DNA from: Vicinamibacterales bacterium | GTDB lineage: Bacteria; Acidobacteriota; Vicinamibacteria; Vicinamibacterales; SCN-69-37 | Direction of reading: 5' to 3' | Assembly (NCBI GenBank): GCA_035512575.1 | Contig: DATKDT010000152.1 | Location: 965-64,964 of the forward strand | DNA: 64,000 nt | In this document: positions 9,386 through 35,933 of the stretch, piece after piece | How positions within the stretch are numbered: the first letter of the stretch is position 1 | Layout of the letters: each line of letters starts with the position of its first letter | The notes under the pieces: model-generated | The model's database searches: none | Seen by the model: only the letters and a program-made list of their open reading frames with translations | What the model was told of the DNA's origin: nothing | Program-made: the position numbers and the translations under genes

Positions 9386-9775
9386 GTGGCACGCGCGTTG
9401 CCCTTCCATATGGCGGGAGGGAACACCGACGTGCGACCGAGAGCGCAGGCATACGCAGCGACCTACGACGAAACGCTCAACCCGCGAATGCTGGGCCACG
9501 AGCTCGTGTTCGCCGCGTTCCTCGTCACGCAGATTCTCGACGGCCTGTTGACCTACGTCGGCGTGTCGCTGTTCGGCATTGCGGCGGAAGGCAATCCGAT
9601 TCTTGCCTATCTGATGTCCTCCTACGGCGAGGCGATCGCCCTTGCCGGCGCGAAGCTCGTGGCCGCGCTGTGCGGCGTCGCGCTCTACCTCCTCGCGGTC
9701 GACCACCTCCTGGCCGTGCTCACCCTGATCTACATCGGCGCCGCCGTCGTGCCCTGGACACTCGTGCTCCTCTGA
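9386..9775 (+). CDS. Small membrane protein (DUF5658-like)
   Basis: 129-aa ORF with three or four TM helices; segment FLVTQILDGLLTYVGV..EGNPILAYLM. GTG start; alternative start at ATG 9410. Confidence 0.5.
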   Translation: MARALPFHMAGGNTDVRPRAQAYAATYDETLNPRMLGHELVFAAFLVTQILDGLLTYVGVSLFGIAAEGNPILAYLMSSYGEAIALAGAKLVAALCGVALYLLAVDHLLAVLTLIYIGAAVVPWTLVLL

Positions 9776-25536: not shown

Positions 25537-26434
25537 CGACCTGGCCGCTCTGTCTCACGCTGACGATGAGAATGCCGAGGGCGATGATGGCGGCCGCCAC
25601 CAGCATACGCGCGCCGAACGGCTCGCCGAGCAGCAGCGTGCCGAGCGCCACGGCAATCACCGGATTCACGTACGTGTAGAGCGACACGGTCGACACCGGA
25701 AGATGCTTCAGCGCGTAGGCGTAGGCGGTGTAGGCCGCAATCGAGCCGGCCACGGTCAGGTACGCGAGCGCCAGGGTCGTCTTGCCGTTGAAGGCGAGGC
25801 GCGGCCACTCGCCCGCGACGGTGGCGAACAGCAGCATCCACGCGCCGCCGAACACCATCTGCAACGCGGCGGACGCGAGCACATCGGTGGAGTGGGTGAA
25901 GCGCTTCGCGTACGTGGAGCCGATCGCCCAGCCGACGCACGCCAGTTGCAGCGCCAGCACGCCGGCGCCGAAACGCGACCCGGCATCCGCCGACGCGAGC
26001 AGATCGGGCCACACCAGCACGAGAATGCCGCCGAAGCCGACGATGAGGCCGACGATCTGGCGGAGCCTGAGCCGCTCGCCGCCCGGCCAGAGGCTCTCGA
26101 TGCCGGTCATCCAGAAGGGCGAGGTGGCAATCAGCACGGCGGCAAGACCGCTCGGCACGAACTGCTCGCCATACGTCACGCCGCCGTTGCCCAGGCCGAG
26201 CATGAAGAAGCCGATGAAGGCGAGTGACGGCCACGAAGAGCGCGGCGGCAGCGGCGTGCCGCGCATCCACAGCGCGAGCGCCAGCACGACGCCGGCGGTG
26301 GTGTAGCGGATGCCGCCCATGGCCATGGGCGGAATCGTCTCGAGCGCGATTTTGATCGCGAGGTACGTCGTGCCCCAGATCAGGCACACCGCTGCGAAGG
26401 CGATGTAGGCGCGCCGGCGCACCACGGGACTCAT
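25484..26434 (-). CDS. EamA/DMT-family transporter
   Basis: 316 aa with 10 TM segments in two EamA repeats; N-terminus CLIWGTTYLAIK. The start ATG overlaps the Lrp stop (ATGA). Confidence 0.85.
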   Translation of the reverse strand: MSPVVRRRAYIAFAAVCLIWGTTYLAIKIALETIPPMAMGGIRYTTAGVVLALALWMRGTPLPPRSSWPSLAFIGFFMLGLGNGGVTYGEQFVPSGLAAVLIATSPFWMTGIESLWPGGERLRLRQIVGLIVGFGGILVLVWPDLLASADAGSRFGAGVLALQLACVGWAIGSTYAKRFTHSTDVLASAALQMVFGGAWMLLFATVAGEWPRLAFNGKTTLALAYLTVAGSIAAYTAYAYALKHLPVSTVSLYTYVNPVIAVALGTLLLGEPFGARMLVAAAIIALGILIVSVRQSGQVVGKDAVIVDPVPVRRAS

Positions 26435-26919
26435 GACGCCGCCTGTTCGGCAGGCGCGTCGGGCATCGGCAGCTGGTGCGTTTCCTTCAGGGTGCCGAGG
26501 ACGATCGTCGTGCGGGTGGAGCGCACGCCGCTGATGCGGCCGATGCGGCCCTTCAGCAGCTCGCCGAGATGCTCCGCGTCGCGCGCGCGGACCTTCACGA
26601 GAAAACAGTCGTCGCCGGCGACGTGGTGCACTTCGAGCACTTCCGGAACCTGGCCGAGCGACGCGGCGACCGAGTCCTCTTCCTCCGGCGCCTCCTTCGT
26701 GCGCACGGCCACGAACGCGAGCAGGCCGAGGCCGAGCGCTTTCGGGCTCACGAGCGCCGCATAGCCGCGGATGACGCCTCTGGCTTCGAGCTTCCGGATG
26801 CGCTCGAGCACGGCCGACGGCGCCAGCCCCACCTCCCGGGAAATTTCCACCTGGGTGACACGGCCGTTGCGTTGAAGAGCATCGATGATACTGATGTCTA
26901 TGGCGTCTAGTTCAGACAT
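26431..26919 (-). CDS. Lrp/AsnC family transcriptional regulator
   Basis: N-terminal HTH D.ID..II..LQ.NGR....EIS..VGLAPSAV..RI..LE..GVI, plus a C-terminal RAM/AsnC_trans_reg domain. Confidence 0.9.
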   Translation of the reverse strand: MSELDAIDISIIDALQRNGRVTQVEISREVGLAPSAVLERIRKLEARGVIRGYAALVSPKALGLGLLAFVAVRTKEAPEEEDSVAASLGQVPEVLEVHHVAGDDCFLVKVRARDAEHLGELLKGRIGRISGVRSTRTTIVLGTLKETHQLPMPDAPAEQAAS

Positions 26920-26952: not shown

Positions 26953-27003
26953 TTTCCGTCAAGCTGCTTCAGCTCAGGCGTGGCACTGCCGTTGCTAGGA
27001 GGG

Positions 27004-27093: not shown

Positions 27094-27243
27094 ATGCTCG
27101 AAACCATTGCCATCATTCTGATCGTGCTGTGGCTGCTGGGTCTGGTCAGCGGCAACACGATGGGCAACTTCATCTACGTGCTGCTGGTGATCGCGATCGT
27201 GCTGCTGCTGGTGCGGTTCATGGGCGGCCGCGGCCGGATTTGA
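27094..27243 (+). CDS. lmo0937-family small membrane protein (49 aa)
   Basis: MLETIAIILIVLWLLGLVSGNTMGNFIYVLLVIAIVLLLVRFMGGRGRI, with GGGAGG 6 nt upstream. Too short for the ORF track. Confidence 0.7.
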   Translation: MLETIAIILIVLWLLGLVSGNTMGNFIYVLLVIAIVLLLVRFMGGRGRI

Positions 27244-28222
27244 AGAACACCCGTTTCAGCCGTGAGTGATACGGCGTAAACGGGCCCGCGCCGTCGTCCT
27301 CGGCGATGTGGCGACTGACCTGGTGCAGCCTGGCATCGAGGTCGTCGCACGTCGCGAGGATGAAGGCCTCGATGGTCATCGGCTCGACCGGCGAGCCGAA
27401 TTCGCGCGAGCCGTGATGCGACAGGATCAGGTGCTCGATCTCGGTCAGCAAATCTGGCGGGAAGTCAGGAAGGCCCGCCGCCGCGTCGCGCACCATCATC
27501 ACGCCGAGCGTGATGTGCCCCACCAGGTTCCCTTCCACCGAGTACTGCGTCGCGGTGTCGTACGCCAGCTCCTGCAGCTTGCCGATGTCGTGCAGGATTA
27601 CCCCGGCTACGAGCAGGTCGCGCTTCGCGCCGTAGGCCTCGCCCAGCGCCGTCGTGGTCTCGACGAGCTTCAGCACGTGCTCGAGCAGGCCGCTCCGATA
27701 GGCGTGATGCACCGTTTGCGCGGCCGGCCAGATCCGGAGTTTCTCGCCATGCGTCTCGAGCATGCGCGTGAGGAGGGCCCGCACGTGGCCGTCGCCCACG
27801 CCGCCGACGTGGGCCTCGAGCGCGGCCCACATCTCGTCGGGCGAATGCGGCGAGGCGCGGATGCAGTCCTCCTCGCGGAAGCCGTCGAGCCGATCGCGGT
27901 TCGCGTCGACGCGGCGGATCTTGTCGAGCAGCAGCTCGAGGCGCTGGTTGTAGACGCTCCCCCGCCCCTGCACCTTGACGAACTCGCCGGCCTCGAACTC
28001 GTGCCGCAGCGTGTCGACGTCGTTGAAGACCTTCGCGGCGATTTCGCCCGAGACGTCCTGCAGGACGACGGAGAGAAACTCGCCCCCGTTGCGTCCCGTG
28101 CGCACGTCCTTGCGCACGCAGAGGTAGAACCCGGTTCCGGACGACTGCGCCTGCAGCATCGCCACCTGCGGCAGCCGCCCGCCCCCGCGTCCGCCCTCGC
28201 CGAAGAGTTCCATGTCTCGCAT
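27218..28222 (-). CDS. OB-fold plus HD-domain 3'-5' exoribonuclease YhaM-like protein
   Basis: ATG 28222 overlaps the upstream TAA (TAATG). N-terminal OB fold (FLSVVLQDVSGEIAAKVF) and HD domain (HHAYRSGLLEHV...ILHDIGK...SHHG). Confidence 0.8.
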   Translation of the reverse strand: MRDMELFGEGGRGGGRLPQVAMLQAQSSGTGFYLCVRKDVRTGRNGGEFLSVVLQDVSGEIAAKVFNDVDTLRHEFEAGEFVKVQGRGSVYNQRLELLLDKIRRVDANRDRLDGFREEDCIRASPHSPDEMWAALEAHVGGVGDGHVRALLTRMLETHGEKLRIWPAAQTVHHAYRSGLLEHVLKLVETTTALGEAYGAKRDLLVAGVILHDIGKLQELAYDTATQYSVEGNLVGHITLGVMMVRDAAAGLPDFPPDLLTEIEHLILSHHGSREFGSPVEPMTIEAFILATCDDLDARLHQVSRHIAEDDGAGPFTPYHSRLKRVFFKSGRGRP

Positions 28223-29019
28223 TACGACTTGTCCAGGAATCCGAAAGGTCCCGCGCCGAGCCACTGGCCGCCGTCGACCGTCAGCACGTCGCCAGTGATG
28301 TAGGCGGCGTGCGGCGAAACGAGAAACGCGACGGCGTCCGCAATCTCGCCCGGCTTGCCCCATCGCTTCAACGGCACCGACCGCGTAAGGCGCTCGACCA
28401 TCTCGGGCGTGTTCCACAGCTGCTTTGCCGCGCCGGGTGACTCGATCGGCCCGGGCGCCACGCCGTTGACGCGGATGCCGTGCGGCGCCCATTCCACGGC
28501 CAGCGTCTGCGTCATGGCCATCACCCCCGCCTTCGCCGCGGCCGAATGCACCGTGCCGGCGCTGCCCGTCCAGGCGTACGTCGCCAGAATCGACACGATC
28601 GATCCCCCGCCGCCGCGCGCAATCATGTGCCGCCCCACCGCGCGCGAACAGTAGAAGCTGCCGTTGAGGACGATGTTGATGACGGCGTTCCAGCCGTTGG
28701 GCGACAGATCCTCCGCGCGGCAAATGAAATTGCCGGCGGCGTTGTTGACGAGGATGTCGACGCGGCCGAACCGCTCGACGGCCTCGCCGACCATGCTATC
28801 GACCTGGTCGGGCTGGCGGACGTCCACCTGCACCGCAAGCGCCTCGATGCGGTCCCCCGCCAGCGCCGCGGCGCCTGCATCGAGGTGCTCCGTGCTGCGG
28901 CTGGCAATGACGACGCGGGCGCCGAGCGCGCCGAGACGGCGCGCGATGGCCAGGCCGAGGCCCGTGCCCCCGCCGGTGACGAGCGCGACCTGATCGCGAA
29001 AGAGGGAGTCGGTGAACAT
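28222..29019 (-). CDS. SDR-family oxidoreductase (2,4-dienoyl-CoA reductase-like)
   Basis: ATG 29019 gives MFTDSLFRDQVALVTGGGTGLGLAIA; also NNAAGNF and the active-site context SAAKAG. The upstream 41 codons of the ORF overlap the divergent kinase gene. Confidence 0.85.
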   Translation of the reverse strand: MFTDSLFRDQVALVTGGGTGLGLAIARRLGALGARVVIASRSTEHLDAGAAALAGDRIEALAVQVDVRQPDQVDSMVGEAVERFGRVDILVNNAAGNFICRAEDLSPNGWNAVINIVLNGSFYCSRAVGRHMIARGGGGSIVSILATYAWTGSAGTVHSAAAKAGVMAMTQTLAVEWAPHGIRVNGVAPGPIESPGAAKQLWNTPEMVERLTRSVPLKRWGKPGEIADAVAFLVSPHAAYITGDVLTVDGGQWLGAGPFGFLDKS

Positions 29020-29027
29020 GAACAGTC

Positions 29028-29037
29028 TTATTATCAA
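29028..29037. promoter_or_regulatory. AT-rich island (TTATTATCAA) shared by the divergent SDR and hybrid-kinase genes
   Basis: The -10-like hexamers TATTAT/TATCAA (plus strand) and GATAAT/TAATAA (minus strand) lie 7-10 nt from ATG 29045 and ATG 29019. Confidence 0.3.
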
Positions 29038-29044
29038 TCCGCCG

Positions 29045-30550
29045 ATGCCCGCGTCGCGACTTCTTCGATTGTTCGACCAGGTTCCCCAAGGCATCTTCAC
29101 CGGCGCGGTGGACGCGGCCGGGTGCGCGACCGACTCGGCCAATCCCTACCTCAAACTGATGTTCGGGCTGGCGGCCGACACGCCCGACGCCGAGGCGCAG
29201 CCGTTCGCGCCCGATCGGTTCGTCGACGCGCAGGCGCGCGAGGCCTTCCTCGAGCGCCTCGGCCGCGACGGCACGGTCCGCGACTACCTGCTGCGGATGC
29301 GCCGCGCCGACGGGTCGCCCTTCTGGGTGGAAGTCACCGCGATTGCCGAGCCGGACAGCGCGGGCCTGTCGGTCGAGGCGCTGATCCGCGACGTCAGCGA
29401 GCGCAAGAAGCTCGACGACCAGGCGAAGGACGTCTACCACCAGCTGCTGCAGGCCGAAAAGCTCGCGTCGCTGGGCCAGACCATCTCCGGCGTCGCGCAC
29501 GAGCTGAACAACCCGCTCGCGGCGATTCTCACATGGGCCGAGCGCCTCTCGGGATCGCCGTCGCCCGACACCACCGCCAAGGGCGTCGACGCCATCCTCA
29601 CGCAGGCCGAGCGCGCCGCCCGGATCGTGCGCAACCTGCTCACGTTCGCCCGCAAGCGCCACACGACGCGCGCCATGGTCGATCTCAATCACGTCGTGCG
29701 CGAGACGCTCGCGCTGCGCGCCTACGAGCAGCGCGTCAGCAACGTGATGATCATCGAGGCGCTCGCCGCCGGGCTGCCGCAGGTCTTTGCCGACCCGCAC
29801 CAGGTGCAGCAGGTGCTGCTCAATCTCGTCATCAACGCCGAACAGGCCATGCTCGGCGCCAACGGGCGCGGCACGCTGATCGTGCGCACGTGGCACGAGC
29901 CGGATCGCGACGCTGTGGTGCTCGAGGTGAACGACGATGGGCCCGGCGTGCCCGAAGATGTGCGGCCGAAGATCTTCGACCCGTTCTTCACGACGAAGGA
30001 AGTGGGAAAAGGCACCGGACTCGGGCTGACGGTGGCCTACGCCATCGTGCAGGAGCACGGCGGGCGGCTGCGGGTGGAATCGGAGCGCGGCCGCGGCGCG
30101 TCGTTCATCATCGAGCTGCCGGTGGGCGGGATGGCGGTGCGCACGCCGGCCCAGCCAAGCGCGCCGGCGCCCGCCGAGATTCCCGCCGGCTCCACCGCGC
30201 TCATCGTCGAAGACGAGGCCGCGCTGCGGGCGGCCGTCGGCGACGCGCTGACCGACGCGGGCTTCACGGTGGACCGCGCCGGCGACGGCGAGGAGGCGCT
30301 CGCGAAGGTGCGGGAGCGCGACTACGACCTGATCGTGTGCGATCTGAAGATGCCGCGCCTCGACGGCCCGGCGTTCTTCGCCGTGCTGTCGGACGAGAAG
30401 CCCGCCCTCGCCCGCCGCGTCGTGTTCGTCACAGGCGACGTCGCCGGCACCGAAGCCGAGCGCTTCCTGGACGCGAGCGGCTGCCGCTGGCTCGCGAAGC
30501 CGTTCCGCCTACGCGATCTTCTGCGACTGGCGCGAGAGACCCTGCGCTGA
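29045..30550 (+). CDS. Hybrid PAS sensor histidine kinase with C-terminal receiver domain
   Basis: PAS region, H-box GVAHELNNPLAAI, N/G boxes LNLVINAEQA, DDGPGVP and GTGLGLTV, then REC (ALIVEDE...DLIVCDLKMPRLDG...AKPF). The ORF is open from GTG 29012 and ATG 29018. ATG 29045 is preferred because the earlier starts overlap the divergent SDR start codon. Confidence 0.85.
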   Translation: MPASRLLRLFDQVPQGIFTGAVDAAGCATDSANPYLKLMFGLAADTPDAEAQPFAPDRFVDAQAREAFLERLGRDGTVRDYLLRMRRADGSPFWVEVTAIAEPDSAGLSVEALIRDVSERKKLDDQAKDVYHQLLQAEKLASLGQTISGVAHELNNPLAAILTWAERLSGSPSPDTTAKGVDAILTQAERAARIVRNLLTFARKRHTTRAMVDLNHVVRETLALRAYEQRVSNVMIIEALAAGLPQVFADPHQVQQVLLNLVINAEQAMLGANGRGTLIVRTWHEPDRDAVVLEVNDDGPGVPEDVRPKIFDPFFTTKEVGKGTGLGLTVAYAIVQEHGGRLRVESERGRGASFIIELPVGGMAVRTPAQPSAPAPAEIPAGSTALIVEDEAALRAAVGDALTDAGFTVDRAGDGEEALAKVRERDYDLIVCDLKMPRLDGPAFFAVLSDEKPALARRVVFVTGDVAGTEAERFLDASGCRWLAKPFRLRDLLRLARETLR

Positions 30551-31402
30551 CCCGCCGGCGTCGCGCGCCGGCATCGACGCCCTGGCCATCTTCAATTTCG
30601 GCGGGGGCCCCTGCACCCCGCCTAGCTCGGTCGCTCGCGGGGCCCCGACGCCCCGCTCCGCTCCCTGCGCACTCGCTGTTTCGTGCAGGCCAACATCCGC
30701 GGCCAGCAGGCGCTTGAGGCGGTCGAGCGCGCGCGCGTGCAGCTGCGACACACGCGACTCGTTCACGCCAATCTCGCCGCCAATCTGCTTCATCGTAGCC
30801 TCGGCGAAGTAGTACATCGAGACGATCTTCCGCTCGCGCGGCGGCAGCGCGTTGATGGCGCAGCGCACGCGATCCTTCACTTCCTGCGTTTCGAATGCCT
30901 TCTCAGGCGACGGCGGCTCGCTCGGAACAAGCACGGCCGGCAGCGACGCGCCGTCGATCGACTCGGCCGACGCCATCGGCGACGTCGACTCGATCGTGTG
31001 GATGCGGACGATGGTGCGCTCGAGGCGCGCGACGTCGGTGCCGACGCGCGTGGCGAGATCCTGCATGGACGGCTCGGCGCCGTTCTCGCGCCGCAGCGAC
31101 TCGCGGGCGGCTTCGAGCTCGCGGCGCTGGCGGCGCACGCCGCGCGGCCAGGCGTCCTTGCGCAGCGCGTCGATCATGGCGCCGCGCACGCGGCGCTCGG
31201 CGAAGGTCTCGAACTTGATGCCCCGCGCCTTGTCGAAGCGGCGCGCCGCGTCAATCAGGCCCAGCATGCCGTCCTGCACCAGATCGCCAATGTCGATCGA
31301 GTTTGGCATCGTCGCGGCGACGCGGCGGGCCAGCGATTCCACGAAGGGCAGGCTCTGGGCGATACGGTCACGTTCGGCGGCGGCCAATGGCTGTCGGGAC
31401 AT
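30509..31402 (-). CDS. Group-3 sigma-70 family factor (FliA/WhiG/SigB-like) with an atypical ~55-aa C-terminal extension
   Basis: Region 2 DLVQDGMLGLIDAARRFD..FETFAERRVRGAM and region 4 LPPRERKIVSMYYF...IGVNESRVSQLHARALDRLK. The tail is encoded by REP copy B and overlaps the kinase 3' end by 42 nt. Confidence 0.8.
   Translation of the reverse strand: MSRQPLAAAERDRIAQSLPFVESLARRVAATMPNSIDIGDLVQDGMLGLIDAARRFDKARGIKFETFAERRVRGAMIDALRKDAWPRGVRRQRRELEAARESLRRENGAEPSMQDLATRVGTDVARLERTIVRIHTIESTSPMASAESIDGASLPAVLVPSEPPSPEKAFETQEVKDRVRCAINALPPRERKIVSMYYFAEATMKQIGGEIGVNESRVSQLHARALDRLKRLLAADVGLHETASAQGAERGVGAPRATELGGVQGPPPKLKMARASMPARDAGGSAQGLSRQSQKIA
30600..30670. repeat. 70-bp GC-rich double-hairpin REP-like element, copy B (inverted relative to copy A)
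   Basis: GGCGGGGGCCCCTGCACCCCGCCTAGCTCGGTCGCTCGCGGGGCCCCGACGCCCCGCTCCGCTCCCTGCGC. About 62 of 71 positions match the reverse complement of 27004-27073. Confidence 0.85.
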
Positions 31403-31607
31403 TCGAACTCCTTGGAAAGTTGCGGGGAGCCCTAGCGCAACCGGACAGCCAACTCTCCAATTGAGATTTGACGATGTGCGACTTCAGATCTAAGAGCTTT
31501 AGATTGAGTGATTTACAGGCATCTGATGCCTGTGAAGAGGCGCGCAGTTACGGGCGATTTTGCGTCAATTTGTTGGCAGGGGGTGTCAAAGCGTCGGAAG
31601 TTTGACG

Positions 31608-31853
31608 CTATTTAGCGTTCGATGGGCCTGTTTCGGCGAGCTTTCTGATTTCGGCAGCCGTCGCCATGGCGTCGAGCGCGCTGCTGACGACCTGGGCCGC
31701 GCGCGAGCGGGTGGCGTCGTCGGCCGCGCGGGCCTCGAGCAGCTCGGCATTGGCCAGCACGATGCCGAGCTGGTTGTTGAGCTGGTGAAAGAGCCGGCCG
31801 ATGTCGCGGGTGTCCGCCACCTGGAGCCGTTCCCCTCTGTGATGCGCGATCAC
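31608..31853 (-). CDS. 81-aa stand-alone histidine-kinase DHp/H-box domain protein (no ATPase domain)
   Basis: GTG at 31853 overlaps the TGA of the upstream HTH gene (GTGA). Sequence ..DIGRLFHQLNNQLGIVLANAELLE.. closely mirrors the H-box of the neighbouring kinase (VAHELNNPLAAILTWAERL). A second helix follows. Confidence 0.5.
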   Translation of the reverse strand: MIAHHRGERLQVADTRDIGRLFHQLNNQLGIVLANAELLEARAADDATRSRAAQVVSSALDAMATAAEIRKLAETGPSNAK

Positions 31854-32059
31854 GCCGAAACGCTGTTCTTGCGGCTGCTCCACCCGGCGCGCCGCTCCGG
31901 CTCGCGCCAGAGCGTGTCGACGAAGATCCGGACCGACCCCCCGGCCGTGCGCACGTACTCGACTTTGCCGTTGGCGATCCAGTTGTAGATGGTGCGGCGG
32001 CTGACGCCGACCAGCTCGCACGCCTTCATGATCGAGATGGTTTTGCGTTCGACAATCAT
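31850..32059 (-). CDS. Excisionase/MerR-superfamily helix-turn-helix DNA-binding protein (69 aa)
   Basis: ISIMKACELVGVSRRTIYNWIANGKVEYVRTAGGSVRIFVDTL. AGGA lies 9 nt upstream of ATG 32059. Confidence 0.7.
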   Translation of the reverse strand: MIVERKTISIMKACELVGVSRRTIYNWIANGKVEYVRTAGGSVRIFVDTLWREPERRAGWSSRKNSVSA

Positions 32060-32132
32060 GACAAGTCCTCGCAGGCATCTATCGGCATTTGCGCGCAGGG
32101 CTGCAGGGTGTCAAAATGCCGCCACCTGTCCG

Positions 32133-33551
32133 ATGGCCGATCCCTGGCATCTTCTGCTCGTCGACGATGAGAAAGCCTTTCGCGAGGCGATTGCGGAGCA
32201 GCTGGCCGATCGGGGCTTCGTCGTGACGCAGGCGGCCGACGGCACGAGCGCCCTCGACCGCCTCTCCGAGTTTGCCTACGACATCGTCGTCACCGATCTG
32301 CGGCTGCCCGGCGCCGACGGGCGGAAGGTGCTGCAGGAGGCGCGGGCGCGCTACCCCGACATCATCGCGATCGTCATCACGGGCTACGGCACGGTGAAGG
32401 ACGCGGTCGAGCTGATCAAGCAGGGTGCGAGCGACTTCATCACGAAGCCGTTTCAGTTCGACGGGCTGCTGCACGTGATCGAGGCGGCGCTCGAGCAGCG
32501 TCGCCTGCGCGCCGAGAACGACTACCTGCGATCGCAGCTCGACGACCGGTACCGGATCGACGGCATCGTCGGCAAGAGCGACGCGATGCACGGGCTGTTT
32601 CAGCTGCTCCACACGGTGGCCGACTCGCCCGCGACGGTGCTGATCACGGGCGAGACGGGCACGGGCAAGGAGCTGGCCGCGCGCGCGATCCATCACGCGA
32701 GCTCGCGGCGCGCGCAGCGCTTCGTCGCGCTCAATTGCAGCGCCATCCCTGAAACGCTGCTCGAGGCCGAGCTGTTCGGGCACGTGCGGGGCGCGTTCAC
32801 GGGCGCGGTGGCCAACCGCCAGGGCAAGCTCGAAGCGGCGCATCGGGGCACGCTGTTCCTCGACGAGGTGGGGACGATGAGCGCGGCGCTGCAGGCGAAG
32901 CTGCTGCGCGTGCTGCAGGAGCGCGAGTTCGAGCGCGTGGGCGACTCGCAGACGGTCAAGGTGGACGTGCGCGTCATCGCGGCCACGCATGCCGATCTCC
33001 AGAAGATGGTGACGGAAGGGCAGTTCCGCGAGGATCTGTTCTATCGCCTGAACGTCGTACCGGTGCGGATGCCGCCGCTGCGCGAGCGGCGCGACGACAT
33101 TCCGCTGCTGGTGCAGCACTTCCTGGTGAAGCTCGCGCGCGACGCGGCAGGACGCAAGGACAGGAACGGTTCGGCCGCCGGCCCGTCAACGGCCTCGCAA
33201 GACGCCATGCGCCAGTTGATGACGTATGACTGGCCCGGCAACGTGCGGCAGCTCGAGAATGTGATCGAGCGCCTGTTCACGCTGCTGCCGAAGCGCGCGC
33301 AGATCGAGGTCGCCGATCTGCCCGACGACATCCGCGGGGCGTCGCCGGGCGCGGCATCGGCGGTGCATGAGGACGCCATGCCCGACCACGGCGTCGATCT
33401 GGATGGCTATCTCTCGAACGTGGAGCTGATGCTGATCAGGAAAGCGCTGGATCGCACGAGTGGCAACAAGCGGCGCGCGGCGGACCTGCTGCAGATCAAG
33501 CGGACGACGCTGATCGAAAAACTGAAACGGCTCGAGCGACTGGGAAACTGA
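32133..33551 (+). CDS. Sigma-54-dependent Fis-family response regulator (NtrC class)
   Basis: REC (LLLVDDE...VVTDLRLPG...TKPF), AAA+ (GETGTGKE, GAFTGA, ESELFGH-like ELFGHVRGAFTG, RVIAAT) and a C-terminal Fis HTH (NKRRAADLLQIKRTTL). Confidence 0.9.
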   Translation: MADPWHLLLVDDEKAFREAIAEQLADRGFVVTQAADGTSALDRLSEFAYDIVVTDLRLPGADGRKVLQEARARYPDIIAIVITGYGTVKDAVELIKQGASDFITKPFQFDGLLHVIEAALEQRRLRAENDYLRSQLDDRYRIDGIVGKSDAMHGLFQLLHTVADSPATVLITGETGTGKELAARAIHHASSRRAQRFVALNCSAIPETLLEAELFGHVRGAFTGAVANRQGKLEAAHRGTLFLDEVGTMSAALQAKLLRVLQEREFERVGDSQTVKVDVRVIAATHADLQKMVTEGQFREDLFYRLNVVPVRMPPLRERRDDIPLLVQHFLVKLARDAAGRKDRNGSAAGPSTASQDAMRQLMTYDWPGNVRQLENVIERLFTLLPKRAQIEVADLPDDIRGASPGAASAVHEDAMPDHGVDLDGYLSNVELMLIRKALDRTSGNKRRAADLLQIKRTTLIEKLKRLERLGN

Positions 33552-33557
33552 GGGCGC

Positions 33558-34556
33558 ATGTCACGGGCGGCGTATTGGACGATCGTTGCGGGAGGGCAGC
33601 CGACGGCCTTTCGCGGGCGCGACAGGGAAGATCTGCTGCCGACGCTGAAACAGCTGCAGAGCAAGCAGCCGGATGCCGCGATCGTGTGGTTCGAGCGCGG
33701 CAAGGTGTTTCCGACGCGCGAGGCGGCGCTGGAGGACCGGCGGGGTCCGCGCGAGCGGAGGCCGCGCGACTGGCGGCCCGGCGGCGATCACAAGGATCCG
33801 CGCGCGAAGTACGACGTGCCGCGCGACCAGAAACGGGCGCGCTTCAGGCAGCTGGCGCAGAAGCGGCGCATGCGCGACGAGGAGCCGGGCGATCGCGGCG
33901 GCTTCGATCCCTTTGCCGAACGGCCGCGGAAGCCGTTCGGCGAGCGGCCGCCACGCGAGAATCCGCCACGCGAGAATCGGCCGCCACGCGAGAATCGTCC
34001 GCCGCGCGAGAATCGTCCGCCGTTCGGCGATCGACGGCCCGCGGGCGGGGGAGAGCGCAGTCCGTTCGGCGACCGGCGACCGGCGGGAGGCGACCGGCGT
34101 CCCGCAGGCGGTGGCCGCGGGAGGTGGCAGGACAGGGAAGGCGGCGATCGCCGCCCGGCCGGCGGCGCGCGCAAGCCTGGCGGGTGGGGAAGCGGCCGTC
34201 CGCAAGGCGCGGGGCGCGGGCCTGGAACCGGACGCCCGCCTGGCGGGCCGGGACGGCCGCCCGGAGGCCCGGGAGTGGGGCGCGGACCTGGAATGGGCCG
34301 TCCGCCCGGAGGCCGTCCGCCCGGAGGCCGTCCGCCTGGAGGCCTGGGGCGATCACCTGCCGGTGGACGCGGGCCGGGGTCGAGCCGGCCCGGCGGCCCC
34401 GGACGGCCGGGGGGAGGCGGCAGGCCGCCTGGCGGCAGGGGACCCGGAGGACCCGCAGGACGTGGGCCCGGCGGGCGTGGACCAGGCGGACGCGCGCCGG
34501 GTGGCCGCGGGCCCGGTGGCCGCGGCCCAGGAGGCCGCGGGGGCGGCCGCGGGTGA
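33558..34556 (+). CDS. Arg/Gly/Pro-repeat low-complexity protein with a ~100-aa ordered N-terminal region (hypothetical)
   Basis: N-terminus MSRAAYWTIVAGGQPTAFRGRDREDLLPTLKQLQSKQPDAAIVWFERGKVF has ordinary composition and G/C-rich third positions. It is followed by PRENRP x4, FGDRRPAGG x2, GRPPGG and GPGGR arrays. It starts 7 nt after the regulator's stop, and its TGA overlaps the GTG of the next gene. Confidence 0.6.
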   Translation: MSRAAYWTIVAGGQPTAFRGRDREDLLPTLKQLQSKQPDAAIVWFERGKVFPTREAALEDRRGPRERRPRDWRPGGDHKDPRAKYDVPRDQKRARFRQLAQKRRMRDEEPGDRGGFDPFAERPRKPFGERPPRENPPRENRPPRENRPPRENRPPFGDRRPAGGGERSPFGDRRPAGGDRRPAGGGRGRWQDREGGDRRPAGGARKPGGWGSGRPQGAGRGPGTGRPPGGPGRPPGGPGVGRGPGMGRPPGGRPPGGRPPGGLGRSPAGGRGPGSSRPGGPGRPGGGGRPPGGRGPGGPAGRGPGGRGPGGRAPGGRGPGGRGPGGRGGGRG

Positions 34557-34903
34557 TCGCGCACGTCATCCTGTTTCGTCCCAAAGCCGATCTCGACGAT
34601 GCCGGCCGGGCGCGCCTGTTCGACGCCATGCGCGCGGCGCACCGCGCGATTCCGCGGATCGCGCGGTTCGTCGTCGGGCAGCGCGTGAAGAACGGCCGGC
34701 CCTACGAAGCGCTCGCGCGCGACTTTCCTTTCTTTGCGCTGCTGGAATTCGAGACGCAGGCCGACTTCGACGCGTATGTATCGCACCCCGCGCACGAGGA
34801 GCTCGGGGCGCAGTTCTATCTGGCGAGCGAGGCGGCGGAGGCCTACGACTTCGAGACGGGCGACATGCCCGGCGCGCTCGACGGTCTCAGGCAGGAACGG
34901 TAA
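34553..34903 (+). CDS. Dabb (stress-responsive alpha/beta-barrel) domain protein
   Basis: VIAHVILFRPKADL...FALLEFETQADFDAYVSHPAHEEL. GTG overlaps the upstream TGA (GTGA). It is in frame with ORF 33575..34903, whose upstream part is a low-complexity shadow. Confidence 0.75.
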   Translation: MIAHVILFRPKADLDDAGRARLFDAMRAAHRAIPRIARFVVGQRVKNGRPYEALARDFPFFALLEFETQADFDAYVSHPAHEELGAQFYLASEAAEAYDFETGDMPGALDGLRQER

Positions 34904-35933
34904 CGCCGAAGAAGCGGACGATGATGTCGCGCAGATGGTCGATCGACTCGGCGGAGTTGATGGCGACGCGCAGCTGCGACCCGCCTTCGATCCCCTTCGT
35001 GTACCACGAGTTCAGCGCGCGCAGCTTGTTGATCACCCACTTGCGGCGTCCACGCGGCGTCTGATCGTCCGGCGCGATCGGCGCCTGGCCCGGAGCGCTA
35101 TGGCGGAAGCCGTCGCGCTCGCCGACGCGCTCGGCCAGCAGCAGATCGATGTACTCGAGCAGGAACAGGCCGCGCTCTTCCATCGTGATCTCGCGAGGCG
35201 CGCGTCCCGCCGCAAGCGCGTGCGCCTGCTCGAAGATCCACGGATTGCGCAGCGCGCCGCGGCCCACCAGCACGCCAGAGACGCGGGTGCTGCGCAGGCG
35301 GTCCACCATCTGCGACGCCTCGACGCAGTCGCCGCTGCCGAACACCGGAATGTCGAGCGACCCGGCGATCCGGTCGATGAGATCCCAGTCCGACACGCCC
35401 GAATAGGACTGCGCGGCGGTCCGGCCGTGGACGGCCACACCCGCCGCGCCGGCGTCCTCGGCCATGCGGGCCAGCACGGGCGCGTTGATCTCGGCGTCGT
35501 TCCACCCGGCGCGCATCTTCACGGTCACCGGAATCTTCACGGCGTCGACCATTGCCCTGATCACCGCTGCGGCATGCTCCGGCTCGCGCATCAGGCTGCA
35601 GCCCGCGTTGTGCTTCGCGATCTTCGGGACGGGGCAGCCCATGTTGATGTCGACCGCGTCGGCGCCCATGCCCTCGACGATTCGCGCGGCGTCGGCCATC
35701 TTCGCCGGGTCGCCGCCGAAGATCTGAATCGACACCGGCCGCTCCTCTTCCGTGTACTCGGCGAACTCCAGCGTGCGATCGATCCCGCGCACGAGCCCCT
35801 CGGAGCTGACCATCTCGGTGACGACCAGCCCGCACCCGCCGCGGCGCTTGACGAGCCGCCGGAACGCGGTATCGGTCATGCCCGCCATCGGAGCCATTGC
35901 GAACGGTGACTGAAGCGGAAGGTGCTTGGCCAA
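34887..35933 (-). CDS. dus: tRNA-dihydrouridine synthase (Dus family)
   Basis: APMAGMTDTAFR, DINMGCP and VTVKMR motifs. TTG start at 35933; alternative ATG 12 codons downstream. Confidence 0.85.
   Translation of the reverse strand: MAKHLPLQSPFAMAPMAGMTDTAFRRLVKRRGGCGLVVTEMVSSEGLVRGIDRTLEFAEYTEEERPVSIQIFGGDPAKMADAARIVEGMGADAVDINMGCPVPKIAKHNAGCSLMREPEHAAAVIRAMVDAVKIPVTVKMRAGWNDAEINAPVLARMAEDAGAAGVAVHGRTAAQSYSGVSDWDLIDRIAGSLDIPVFGSGDCVEASQMVDRLRSTRVSGVLVGRGALRNPWIFEQAHALAAGRAPREITMEERGLFLLEYIDLLLAERVGERDGFRHSAPGQAPIAPDDQTPRGRRKWVINKLRALNSWYTKGIEGGSQLRVAINSAESIDHLRDIIVRFFGVTVPA

Follow-up and report, generated by a model that had tools for sequence, protein, structure and literature searches.

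How can a coding repeat that is prone to slippage persist between two translationally coupled genes, and what could its product do? The question is raised by a stretch of 64,000 nucleotides from a Vicinamibacterales bacterium of the Acidobacteriota (contig DATKDT010000152.1 of assembly GCA_035512575.1), which was analysed at its full length and is hereafter called the window. Near its middle lies gene X, which encodes a protein of 332 residues whose N-terminal region of ordinary composition gives way to a long Arg/Gly/Pro-rich repeat, and which stands between the gene of an NtrC-type sigma-54 activator and that of a Dabb (stress-responsive alpha/beta-barrel) protein. A first-pass annotation, made from the nucleotide sequence alone, had described X as an intrinsically disordered, RGG-like protein. 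The comparisons reported here point to a two-part protein, made of a conserved N-terminal core and a basic, predicted disordered repeat tail. Proteins with such tails are already known from bacteria; what is new in X is a domain and a motif that no database describes.

Reading frame and composition of gene X

Comparison with related loci shows that X is a real gene, read in the frame first assigned to it. Over the first 100 codons, the closest relative, locus L003 (91% identical to X in the N-terminal domain, or N-domain), differs from X by 25 synonymous and 8 non-synonymous changes and by no insertion or deletion (indel), which argues for purifying selection in this frame. Reading from the conserved ATG, the first stop is met at 34556, on the start of the Dabb gene. 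The same 4-nt overlap of stop and start recurs in 48 of 62 Dabb-bearing related loci (ATGA in 32, GTGA in 15, TTGA in 1), and is kept at tail lengths from 16 to 390 aa. The frame of the repeat is fixed by this recurrence rather than by the G/C content of third codon positions (GC3). The latter had been advanced as support for the frame, and does support it in the first 100 codons (0.86, against 0.81-0.91 in neighbouring genes), but its value declines along the tail, to 0.76 and then 0.67, and would on its own favour another frame there.

The repeat had also been described as open in all six frames. Five are indeed stop-free across 33858..34553, whereas the sixth has one stop. This openness, the GC3 of the tail and a frameshifted read-through seen in three relatives are the points in favour of a tail that is not translated as written, be it a stop-free GC-rich artefact, a wrong frame or an assembly frameshift. 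We consider this highly improbable: no stop interrupts the frame between the conserved ATG and 34556, the same frame yields tails rich in G, R, P and K that end on the Dabb start in those 48 of 62 genomes, and the indels that separate the tail from those of L001 and L003, although many, are all in-frame up to a homologous C-terminus. The three relatives are long-read metagenome-assembled genomes (L062, L064 and L072), in which the X open reading frame (ORF) loses its repeat character midway and runs 200-680 nt into or past Dabb, most likely through homopolymer frameshift errors of assembly in the GC-rich repeat. Because of such errors, automated annotations of this family call for care.

Glycine (87), arginine (66) and proline (58) together make up 63.6% of the residues of X, which has a net charge of +43, a pI of 11.95, a grand average of hydropathy (GRAVY) of -1.54 and a glycine content of 26%. 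The tail alone is 36% G, 22% P and 20% R, with 4.5% Ala, 0.9% Lys, almost no L, I or V and no Tyr. Such a stretch is atypical of the genome and an outlier in the window, where G+R+P reaches at most 0.55 in any 40-aa stretch of the 47 other plausible genes, none of them attaining 60%. The repeat units listed in the first-pass annotation were largely found again: PREN(R)P occurs four times (three as exact PRENRP), FGDRRPAGG twice (its core DRRPAGG four times), and the protein does end in ...GRGPGGRGPGGRGGGRG. Two counts had to be changed, since GRPPGG is present six times rather than four to five, and GPGGR four times in exact form (RGPGG five times), the six to seven copies claimed being reached only with variants such as RAPGG.

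At the DNA level, the tail is built of 15- and 18-nt tandem repeats (Table 1), the second 15-nt repeat being counted by Tandem Repeats Finder at 5.6 copies with 76% matches. The protein period is thus 5-6 aa and not 3, as proposed from the outset, which rules out a collagen-like (Gly-X-Y)n protein. Since the array of GRPPG units is nearly perfect (97%), it stems from a recent expansion. No G-quadruplex motif with loops of up to 7 nt was found in the gene. An AT-hook was considered and dropped, as X has no RGRP.

An order-wide family with a conserved N-terminal core

A search for homologues with the N-terminal region only, as the first-pass annotation had advised, was rewarding. The first 130 aa of X retrieved 224 proteins at E<=1e-3, and with a profile of 55 of these homologues 786 clusters (50% identity) were reached, 257 having E<=1e-30; none is annotated as anything more than 'hypothetical protein'. 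When species-representative genomes were scanned for the pattern WRPGGxHxDP, at least 477 loci proved to code for a relative. Nearly all of them carry the labels Vicinamibacterales, Vicinamibacteraceae, Luteitalea or unclassified Acidobacteriota; the Luteitalea metagenome-assembled genomes with the gene include L021, L044 and L058. A few records with other labels share the synteny and have similar identity, and for this reason we put those labels down to errors in binning or labelling. On this evidence, the family is order-wide in Vicinamibacterales, present in essentially every sampled genome, and unnamed in any database. X is 83-90% identical to its nearest family members and carries all the invariant columns of the alignment of 55 family sequences. 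In a metagenome scan, nothing above 63% identity was found, and the exact X protein and one neighbour protein were absent from the contig index searched. No literature on the family, its motif or disordered proteins of Vicinamibacteria was found.

Conservation is concentrated in three elements (Table 1). The first is a compact domain of bb-a-bb-a layout (b, strand; a, helix), in which I9, F18, L26, T29, Q32, L33 and W44 are invariant in the alignment. The second is the motif WRPGGxHxDPR, with W72, R73, P74, G75, G76, H78, D80 and P81 invariant and R82 conserved in at least 90% of the 55 sequences. The third is a predicted basic helix, where R89 is invariant and D90, K92, R93 and F96 are nearly so. 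AlphaFold2 places strands at residues 5-11 and 14-20, a helix at 23-36, strands at 41-46 and 49-51, and helices at 54-61/62 and 89-107/108. Its confidence (pLDDT) for residues 1-62 is 96-98 in the full-length model and 90-94 in a model of 110 aa; in the full-length model it is 74-92 for residues 61-110 and 38-57 for residues 111-332, which show almost no secondary structure. The tail is thus predicted to be disordered, as had been supposed from its composition.

Relatives outside the family were sought in several ways. Pfam searches at E<=10 on the 55 alignment members returned scattered noise (TPR, for example) and nothing consistent, and neither the family profile nor the two tail halves had a meaningful match among PDB sequences. 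Foldseek reached a best E of about 0.8-0.9 against the PDB with both models, and of 0.018 against viral structures, where only uncharacterised phage proteins were matched. An assignment to phage or anti-phage defence functions was looked for in PHROGs and in PADLOC, with 0 families in either. A FlgM-like anti-sigma factor was dropped for want of a Pfam match. Two proteins, P0149 and P0207, that resemble N-terminal fusions of the X domain are read-through from the activator gene and not new architectures.

Coupling of X to the activator and Dabb genes

In all 80 related loci compared for synteny, X directly follows the gene of the NtrC-type activator, and the proximity claimed by the first-pass annotation is borne out: the activator stop ends at 33551 and the ATG of X is at 33558, which leaves a 6-nt spacer, and in most related loci no more than 20 nt separate the two genes. 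The GTGA in which the TGA of X and the GTG of Dabb overlap is likewise as described, and is consistent with translational coupling of the two genes. Taken together, the short gap on one side and the overlap on the other indicate that activator, X and Dabb form one coupled unit. The activator matches Sigma54_activat (PF00158, 3.6e-73), Response_reg (PF00072, 8.7e-27) and HTH_8 (PF02954, 1.5e-11), and has AtoC/NtrC matches in NCBIfam below the equivalog cutoffs; ATG 32133 is its likely start, in an ORF open from 31989. The Dabb protein covers positions 1-95 of the 96 of the PF07876 profile (E=2.7e-13, 50.8 bits against a cutoff of 25).

The unit lacks a sigma-54 promoter of its own, both in the window and in relatives. 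No match to TGGCAC-N5-TTGCW at 13 or more of 16 positions lies upstream of the activator or of X in the window, and 59 related loci gave 2 weak matches at chance level only. A sigma-70-type consensus promoter for the unit was not found either, and the sole terminator candidate, a weak hairpin, spans the X/Dabb junction and stays below the expectation from shuffled sequences.

Both junctions show further peculiarities among relatives. Where the spacer between activator and X is long (100-460 nt), it consists mostly of microsatellites of 7-10 nt, such as GGGTATC x5, GGGGACC x4 and the GGCTCAGG type (L029 5870-5910, L044 5715-5760, L041 5860-5930, L034 1540-1580, L038 5900-5960), which suggests that the whole activator-X junction is slippage-prone, beyond the coding tail. 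At the other end, 41 of 75 loci have strings resembling a Shine-Dalgarno sequence for Dabb (GGAGG, AAGGAG, GGGG) within the final codons of X, the corresponding region of the window being 34527..34556. The clade-specific C-termini (...KKPEE, ...RRPKE, ...GGGGRxR) would thus be dictated in part by the ribosome-binding site of Dabb, and it may be speculated that a G-rich ribosome-binding region seeded the repeats of Gly codons.

Turnover of the tail and its possible function

Tail variation was measured between species, in 66 credible complete orthologues and with the tail counted from 20 residues past the motif. The shortest tail has 2 aa and the longest 398 aa, the median being near 160. The repeat units are specific to lineages: GRGPG and GGGRGP in the clade of X, and elsewhere DRPGGDRP(F/T)(R/G)PRQ, GDRPFRPK, KPFGERK, GDRGWKPSRPAG, GDRGWKP, PRDDRPR, GPGSRGPG, GPSSRPP and others. 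Some properties recur nevertheless. All 63 tails that reach 40 aa carry a positive net charge per residue. Aliphatic residues make up a median of 1% and G+P a median of 39%, and relatives of lower GC use Lys in place of Arg, with R/(R+K) down to 0.39. Aromatic F or W residues recur at regular positions in many units (DRPFRPK, KPFGERK, GDRGWKP). When the tails are set against the expectation from their own base composition, Ala (0.36x), Leu (0x) and Val (0.1x) fall far below it across species, whereas Pro (1.6x), Gly (1.4x), Asp (2.1x) and Lys (3.2x) exceed it. From the depletion of Ala, Leu and Val, selection against order-promoting and hydrophobic residues in the tails is evident.

By analogy with known proteins discussed below, we tentatively favour a reading in which the core of X contacts a specific partner while the tail serves as a non-specific, length-tunable binder or tether of polyanions. 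X is seen here as a protein in two parts that is translated, cytoplasmic and confined to Vicinamibacterales. Residues 1-110, with the bb-a-bb-a domain, the motif WRPGGxHxDPR and the arginine-rich helix, would form the conserved functional core that binds one partner, for which the co-encoded sigma-54 activator, the Dabb protein and nucleic acid are candidates; given the strict linkage, the activator or Dabb should be considered first. The tail, polycationic, rich in Gly and Pro and built up by replication slippage of 15-18-nt units, would bind or tether RNA, DNA or polyphosphate, after the model of AlgP and PhaF with their KPAA tails and of Hc2 with its pentamers. As the middle gene of an activator-X-Dabb unit coupled at both junctions, X should also follow the dosage of the regulator.

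Several observations weigh against a polyanion-binding tail, and many of them speak for the main alternative, which we hold to be somewhat unlikely and in which the tail arises from slippage as a by-product and is tolerated. The N-terminal module would then carry all function, for instance as a modulator or output of the sigma-54 activator, while replication slippage in GC-rich DNA would lengthen and shorten the 3' part of the gene. Selection would do no more than keep the frame open, so that ribosomes arrive at the Dabb start coupled to it, and prevent the peptide from becoming insoluble or aggregating. In 10 of the 66 orthologues the tail has fewer than 40 aa, and as few as 2 aa, so that it is dispensable in some lineages, and tail length differs by up to 130 aa in species pairs that are about 90% identical in the N-domain. 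Sequence and length of the tail turn over completely between species, and the units of different lineages are unrelated. The median net charge per residue, +0.14, is what the base composition of the tails would give (+0.13), so that the charge is no evidence of selection. Codons that are rare in the genome are common in the tail of X (GGA 0.29 against 0.07, CGT 0.20 against 0.04, CCT 0.15 against 0.04). Finally, neither the full X protein nor its N-domain matches anything in Pfam, NCBIfam, PHROGs or PADLOC, and the N-domain has no detectable relative in sequence or structure that points to nucleic-acid binding. The slippage alternative can further draw on the near-perfect DNA repeats with their recent expansion, on the microsatellite spacers of some relatives, and on the conserved overlap with Dabb, which gives a reason for the open frame.

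What speaks for selection on the tail is that most lineages keep one of 100-400 aa despite the usual deletion bias of bacteria. Moreover, the depletions and enrichments listed above are consistent across species with different units, the replacement of Arg by Lys at lower GC keeps the basic character, and F and W hold regular positions in many units.

The surrounding regulatory island

The gene order around X is the same in the 80 loci: hybrid kinase (+), FliA/WhiG-type sigma factor (-), excisionase-type helix-turn-helix (HTH) protein (-), activator (+), X (+) and usually Dabb (+), followed by convergent genes for DusB, an UpxY/RfaH-like NusG paralogue, SurA and Mfd. Coordinates in the window are collected in Table 1.

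Table 1. Gene X, its parts and the genes of its island, in positions of the window
Feature	Positions	Strand	Details and basis
Gene X	33558..34556	+	332 aa, ATG start; ORF, homologues, synteny, AlphaFold2 model
Compact bb-a-bb-a domain, residues 1-62	33558..33743	+	AlphaFold2; alignment columns
WRPGGDHKDPR, residues 72-82 (family motif WRPGGxHxDPR)	33771..33803	+	Alignment A1 (n=55)
Predicted basic helix RDQKRARFRQLAQKRRMRDE, residues 89-108	33822..33881	+	Both AlphaFold2 models; conservation
Repeat tail of X, predicted disordered, residues 111-332	33888..34553	+	AlphaFold2, composition, motif counts
18-nt tandem repeat x4.3, PREN(R)P units	33948..34021	+	Tandem Repeats Finder, 89% matches, score 113
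15-nt tandem repeat x3.3, GRPPG units	34296..34344	+	Tandem Repeats Finder, 97% matches
15-nt / 45-nt tandem repeats, GRGPG units up to stop	34458..34553	+	Tandem Repeats Finder rows 34458-34541 and 34464-34553
NtrC-type sigma-54 activator (REC + AAA+ with GAFTGA + Fis-type HTH)	32133..33551	+	Pfam, translation
Dabb (stress-responsive alpha/beta-barrel) protein, 116 aa	34553..34903	+	Pfam PF07876
GTGA, overlap of Dabb GTG start and X TGA stop	34553..34556	+	Sequence
Hybrid histidine kinase (HisKA-HATPase-REC)	29012..30550	+	NCBIfam kinase matches; syntenic wherever the locus is long enough
FliA/WhiG-family sigma factor	30509..31402	-	TIGR02479, 195 bits against cutoff 189.6; synteny
Excisionase/MerR-type HTH protein, 69 aa, divergent from activator	31850..32059	-	TIGR01764 1.2e-10; PF12728; synteny

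Several other elements of the island deserve mention. An unannotated ORF of about 81 aa (31608..31853, minus strand) begins with a GTG that overlaps the stop of the excisionase-type gene as GTGA. It encodes a segment resembling the H-box of histidine kinases, FHQLNNQLGIVLANAELLE, has no Pfam match, is found by tblastn in 72 of the 80 loci, and is possibly a stand-alone DHp or phosphotransfer-like protein of the same island. An inverted repeat, TGTCAAAGCGTCGGAAGTTTGACG, lies at about 31583..31606, in the intergenic region upstream of the sigma-factor gene, and a half-site, TGTCAAAA, at about 32109..32116, just before the activator start at 32133; both may be regulator-binding sites. On the far side, dusB (nifR3; 34887..35933, minus strand) is convergent and overlaps the end of the activator-X-Dabb unit by 17 nt. 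Proteobacteria have nifR3-ntrB-ntrC and dusB-fis operons. The proximity of dusB to an NtrC-type gene is conserved in the 80 loci, in an orientation unlike that of the proteobacterial operons.

Elsewhere in the window, two strong matches to the -24/-12 elements of sigma-54 promoters were noted. The first, TGGCACGCGCGTTGCC (9387..9402, plus strand), is at the annotated start of a DUF5658 ORF (9386..9775), before a run of plus-strand genes. The second, TGGCACTGCCGTTGCT (26981..26996, plus strand), lies between an AsnC/Lrp-type gene (26431..26919, minus strand) and a YhaM-like gene (27218..28723, minus strand), with no obvious plus-strand gene downstream. They could be targets of the activator or chance matches.

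Biological significance

Few soil bacteria are as abundant as the Vicinamibacterales, and few have been studied so little. X is present in essentially every sampled genome of this order, always in the same regulatory island, and its family is conserved and experimentally tractable. It amounts to a natural series in which one invariant folded module carries tails of 2 to about 400 aa in many repeat chemistries, and which should help to establish the contribution of a disordered basic tail to its protein in a bacterium, a question on which AlgP and PhaF are among the few cases studied so far. It also presents a slippage-prone coding repeat that persists between two translationally coupled genes. 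Should the core of X bind the sigma-54 activator, it would represent a new type of accessory factor for such regulators.

A bolder interpretation, which we regard as unlikely, would make X the founder of a group of bacterial Arg/Gly/Pro organisers of chromatin or ribonucleoprotein, whose WRPGGxHxDPR motif docks to the activator or to RNA polymerase while the tail condenses DNA, RNA or polyphosphate into a compartment of stress or dormancy. If so, an abundant soil phylum would possess a counterpart of Hc2 or of the eukaryotic RGG scaffolds, with tail length set by slippage.

Comparison with known repeat-tailed proteins

The likeness put forward by the first-pass annotation was to eukaryotic RGG/RG or GAR proteins, such as FUS, nucleolin, fibrillarin and LAF-1. 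Thandapani et al. (in 2013) are said to have defined the RGG/RG motif as RGG or RG repeated with spacers of 0-4 residues. A regular-expression scan of X found no tri-RGG and no di-RGG box and only two RGG triplets, at residues 113 and 327, along with two tri-RG and four di-RG runs, all within residues 302-332. 'RGG-like' is thus a misnomer except in a loose sense, for the RG-(4)-RG runs of the last 30 or so residues. That X is nonetheless a bacterial counterpart of these proteins, whose tail would bind RNA and drive liquid-liquid phase separation into condensates, seems decidedly unlikely to us. The Arg/Gly-rich, low-complexity and predicted disordered character of the tail, its short-spaced RG at the C-terminus, the (GGGRGP)n arrays of relatives and the F and W residues as possible 'stickers' fit such a protein. 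The lack of an RGG box and of Tyr does not, nor does a Pro content of 22%, which is atypical of GAR domains, and phmmer found no PDB protein with a similar segment. RG-rich character is specific to the clade of X and not to the family, many orthologue tails being made of other repeats (KPFGERK, PRDDRPR).

GPGGX pentapeptide repeats are found in elastomeric proteins such as spider flagelliform silk. The RGPGG/GPGGR units of X formally fit this pattern, with Arg at the X position. They number only four to five, however, in a protein that is polycationic, cytoplasmic and devoid of an apparent N-terminal signal peptide, and the units of its relatives are unlike them. An elastomeric function of this type, or that of a hydrophilin/LEA-like 'molecular shield', made together with Dabb against desiccation or another soil stress, is very unlikely in our judgement. 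It would agree with the extreme hydrophilicity and Gly content of X, with the coupling to a Dabb-family gene and with the soil habitat of Vicinamibacterales, as given by sample types and record titles. Against it, the 'stress' in the name of Dabb stems from plant members of that family, no LEA or hydrophilin family is matched, and no sign of high expression was seen, the tail being rich in rare codons. Nor would a bulk protectant need a conserved folded domain and an invariant motif.

The closest parallels in architecture are offered by bacterial repeat proteins of the histone H1-like kind. In Pseudomonas aeruginosa, AlgP (AlgR3) is a histone-H1-like protein whose C-terminal KPAA domain ties polyphosphate granules to DNA in the context of starvation (PMC9239181). 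Like X, it is cytoplasmic and joins a structured N-terminal part to a long, basic, low-complexity repeat tail, but this tail is rich in Lys, Pro and Ala rather than in Arg, Gly and Pro, the genomic context is different, and the two proteins share no homology of sequence or domain. PhaF of Pseudomonas has an RNA/DNA-binding C-terminal domain, a disordered KPAA region that binds mRNA and activates translation (PMC12818456). It thus provides a case in which a disordered basic repeat region, joined to a separate N-terminal domain, is a genuine RNA-binding module. The N-domain of PhaF is however a helical phasin, in contrast to the bb-a-bb-a domain of X, its repeat chemistry is another, and RNA binding is established for PhaF only.

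The chlamydial protein Hc2 (HctB) ranges from 165 to 237 aa according to its number of basic pentamers (PMC2848022). X resembles it as a basic protein with pentamer repeats, of variable length through repeat number, but Hc2 is rich in Lys and Ala and has no N-domain like that of X, and its length varies between strains, whereas that of X was measured between species. In Chlamydia, hctB is one of the late genes under the alternative sigma factors sigma28 and sigma54; X has the genes of a FliA/WhiG-type sigma factor and of a sigma-54 activator as neighbours, which recalls this regulation by analogy only. X has neither Lys/Ala/Pro repeats of KPAA type nor Lys-rich pentamers, and neither homology nor a Pfam match links it to these proteins. 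With another composition and no such homology, X is not a member of the H1-like group. It is like AlgP, PhaF and Hc2 in architecture only, and what it shares with them is a basic, predicted disordered tandem-repeat tail of variable repeat number, set on a separate N-terminal domain.

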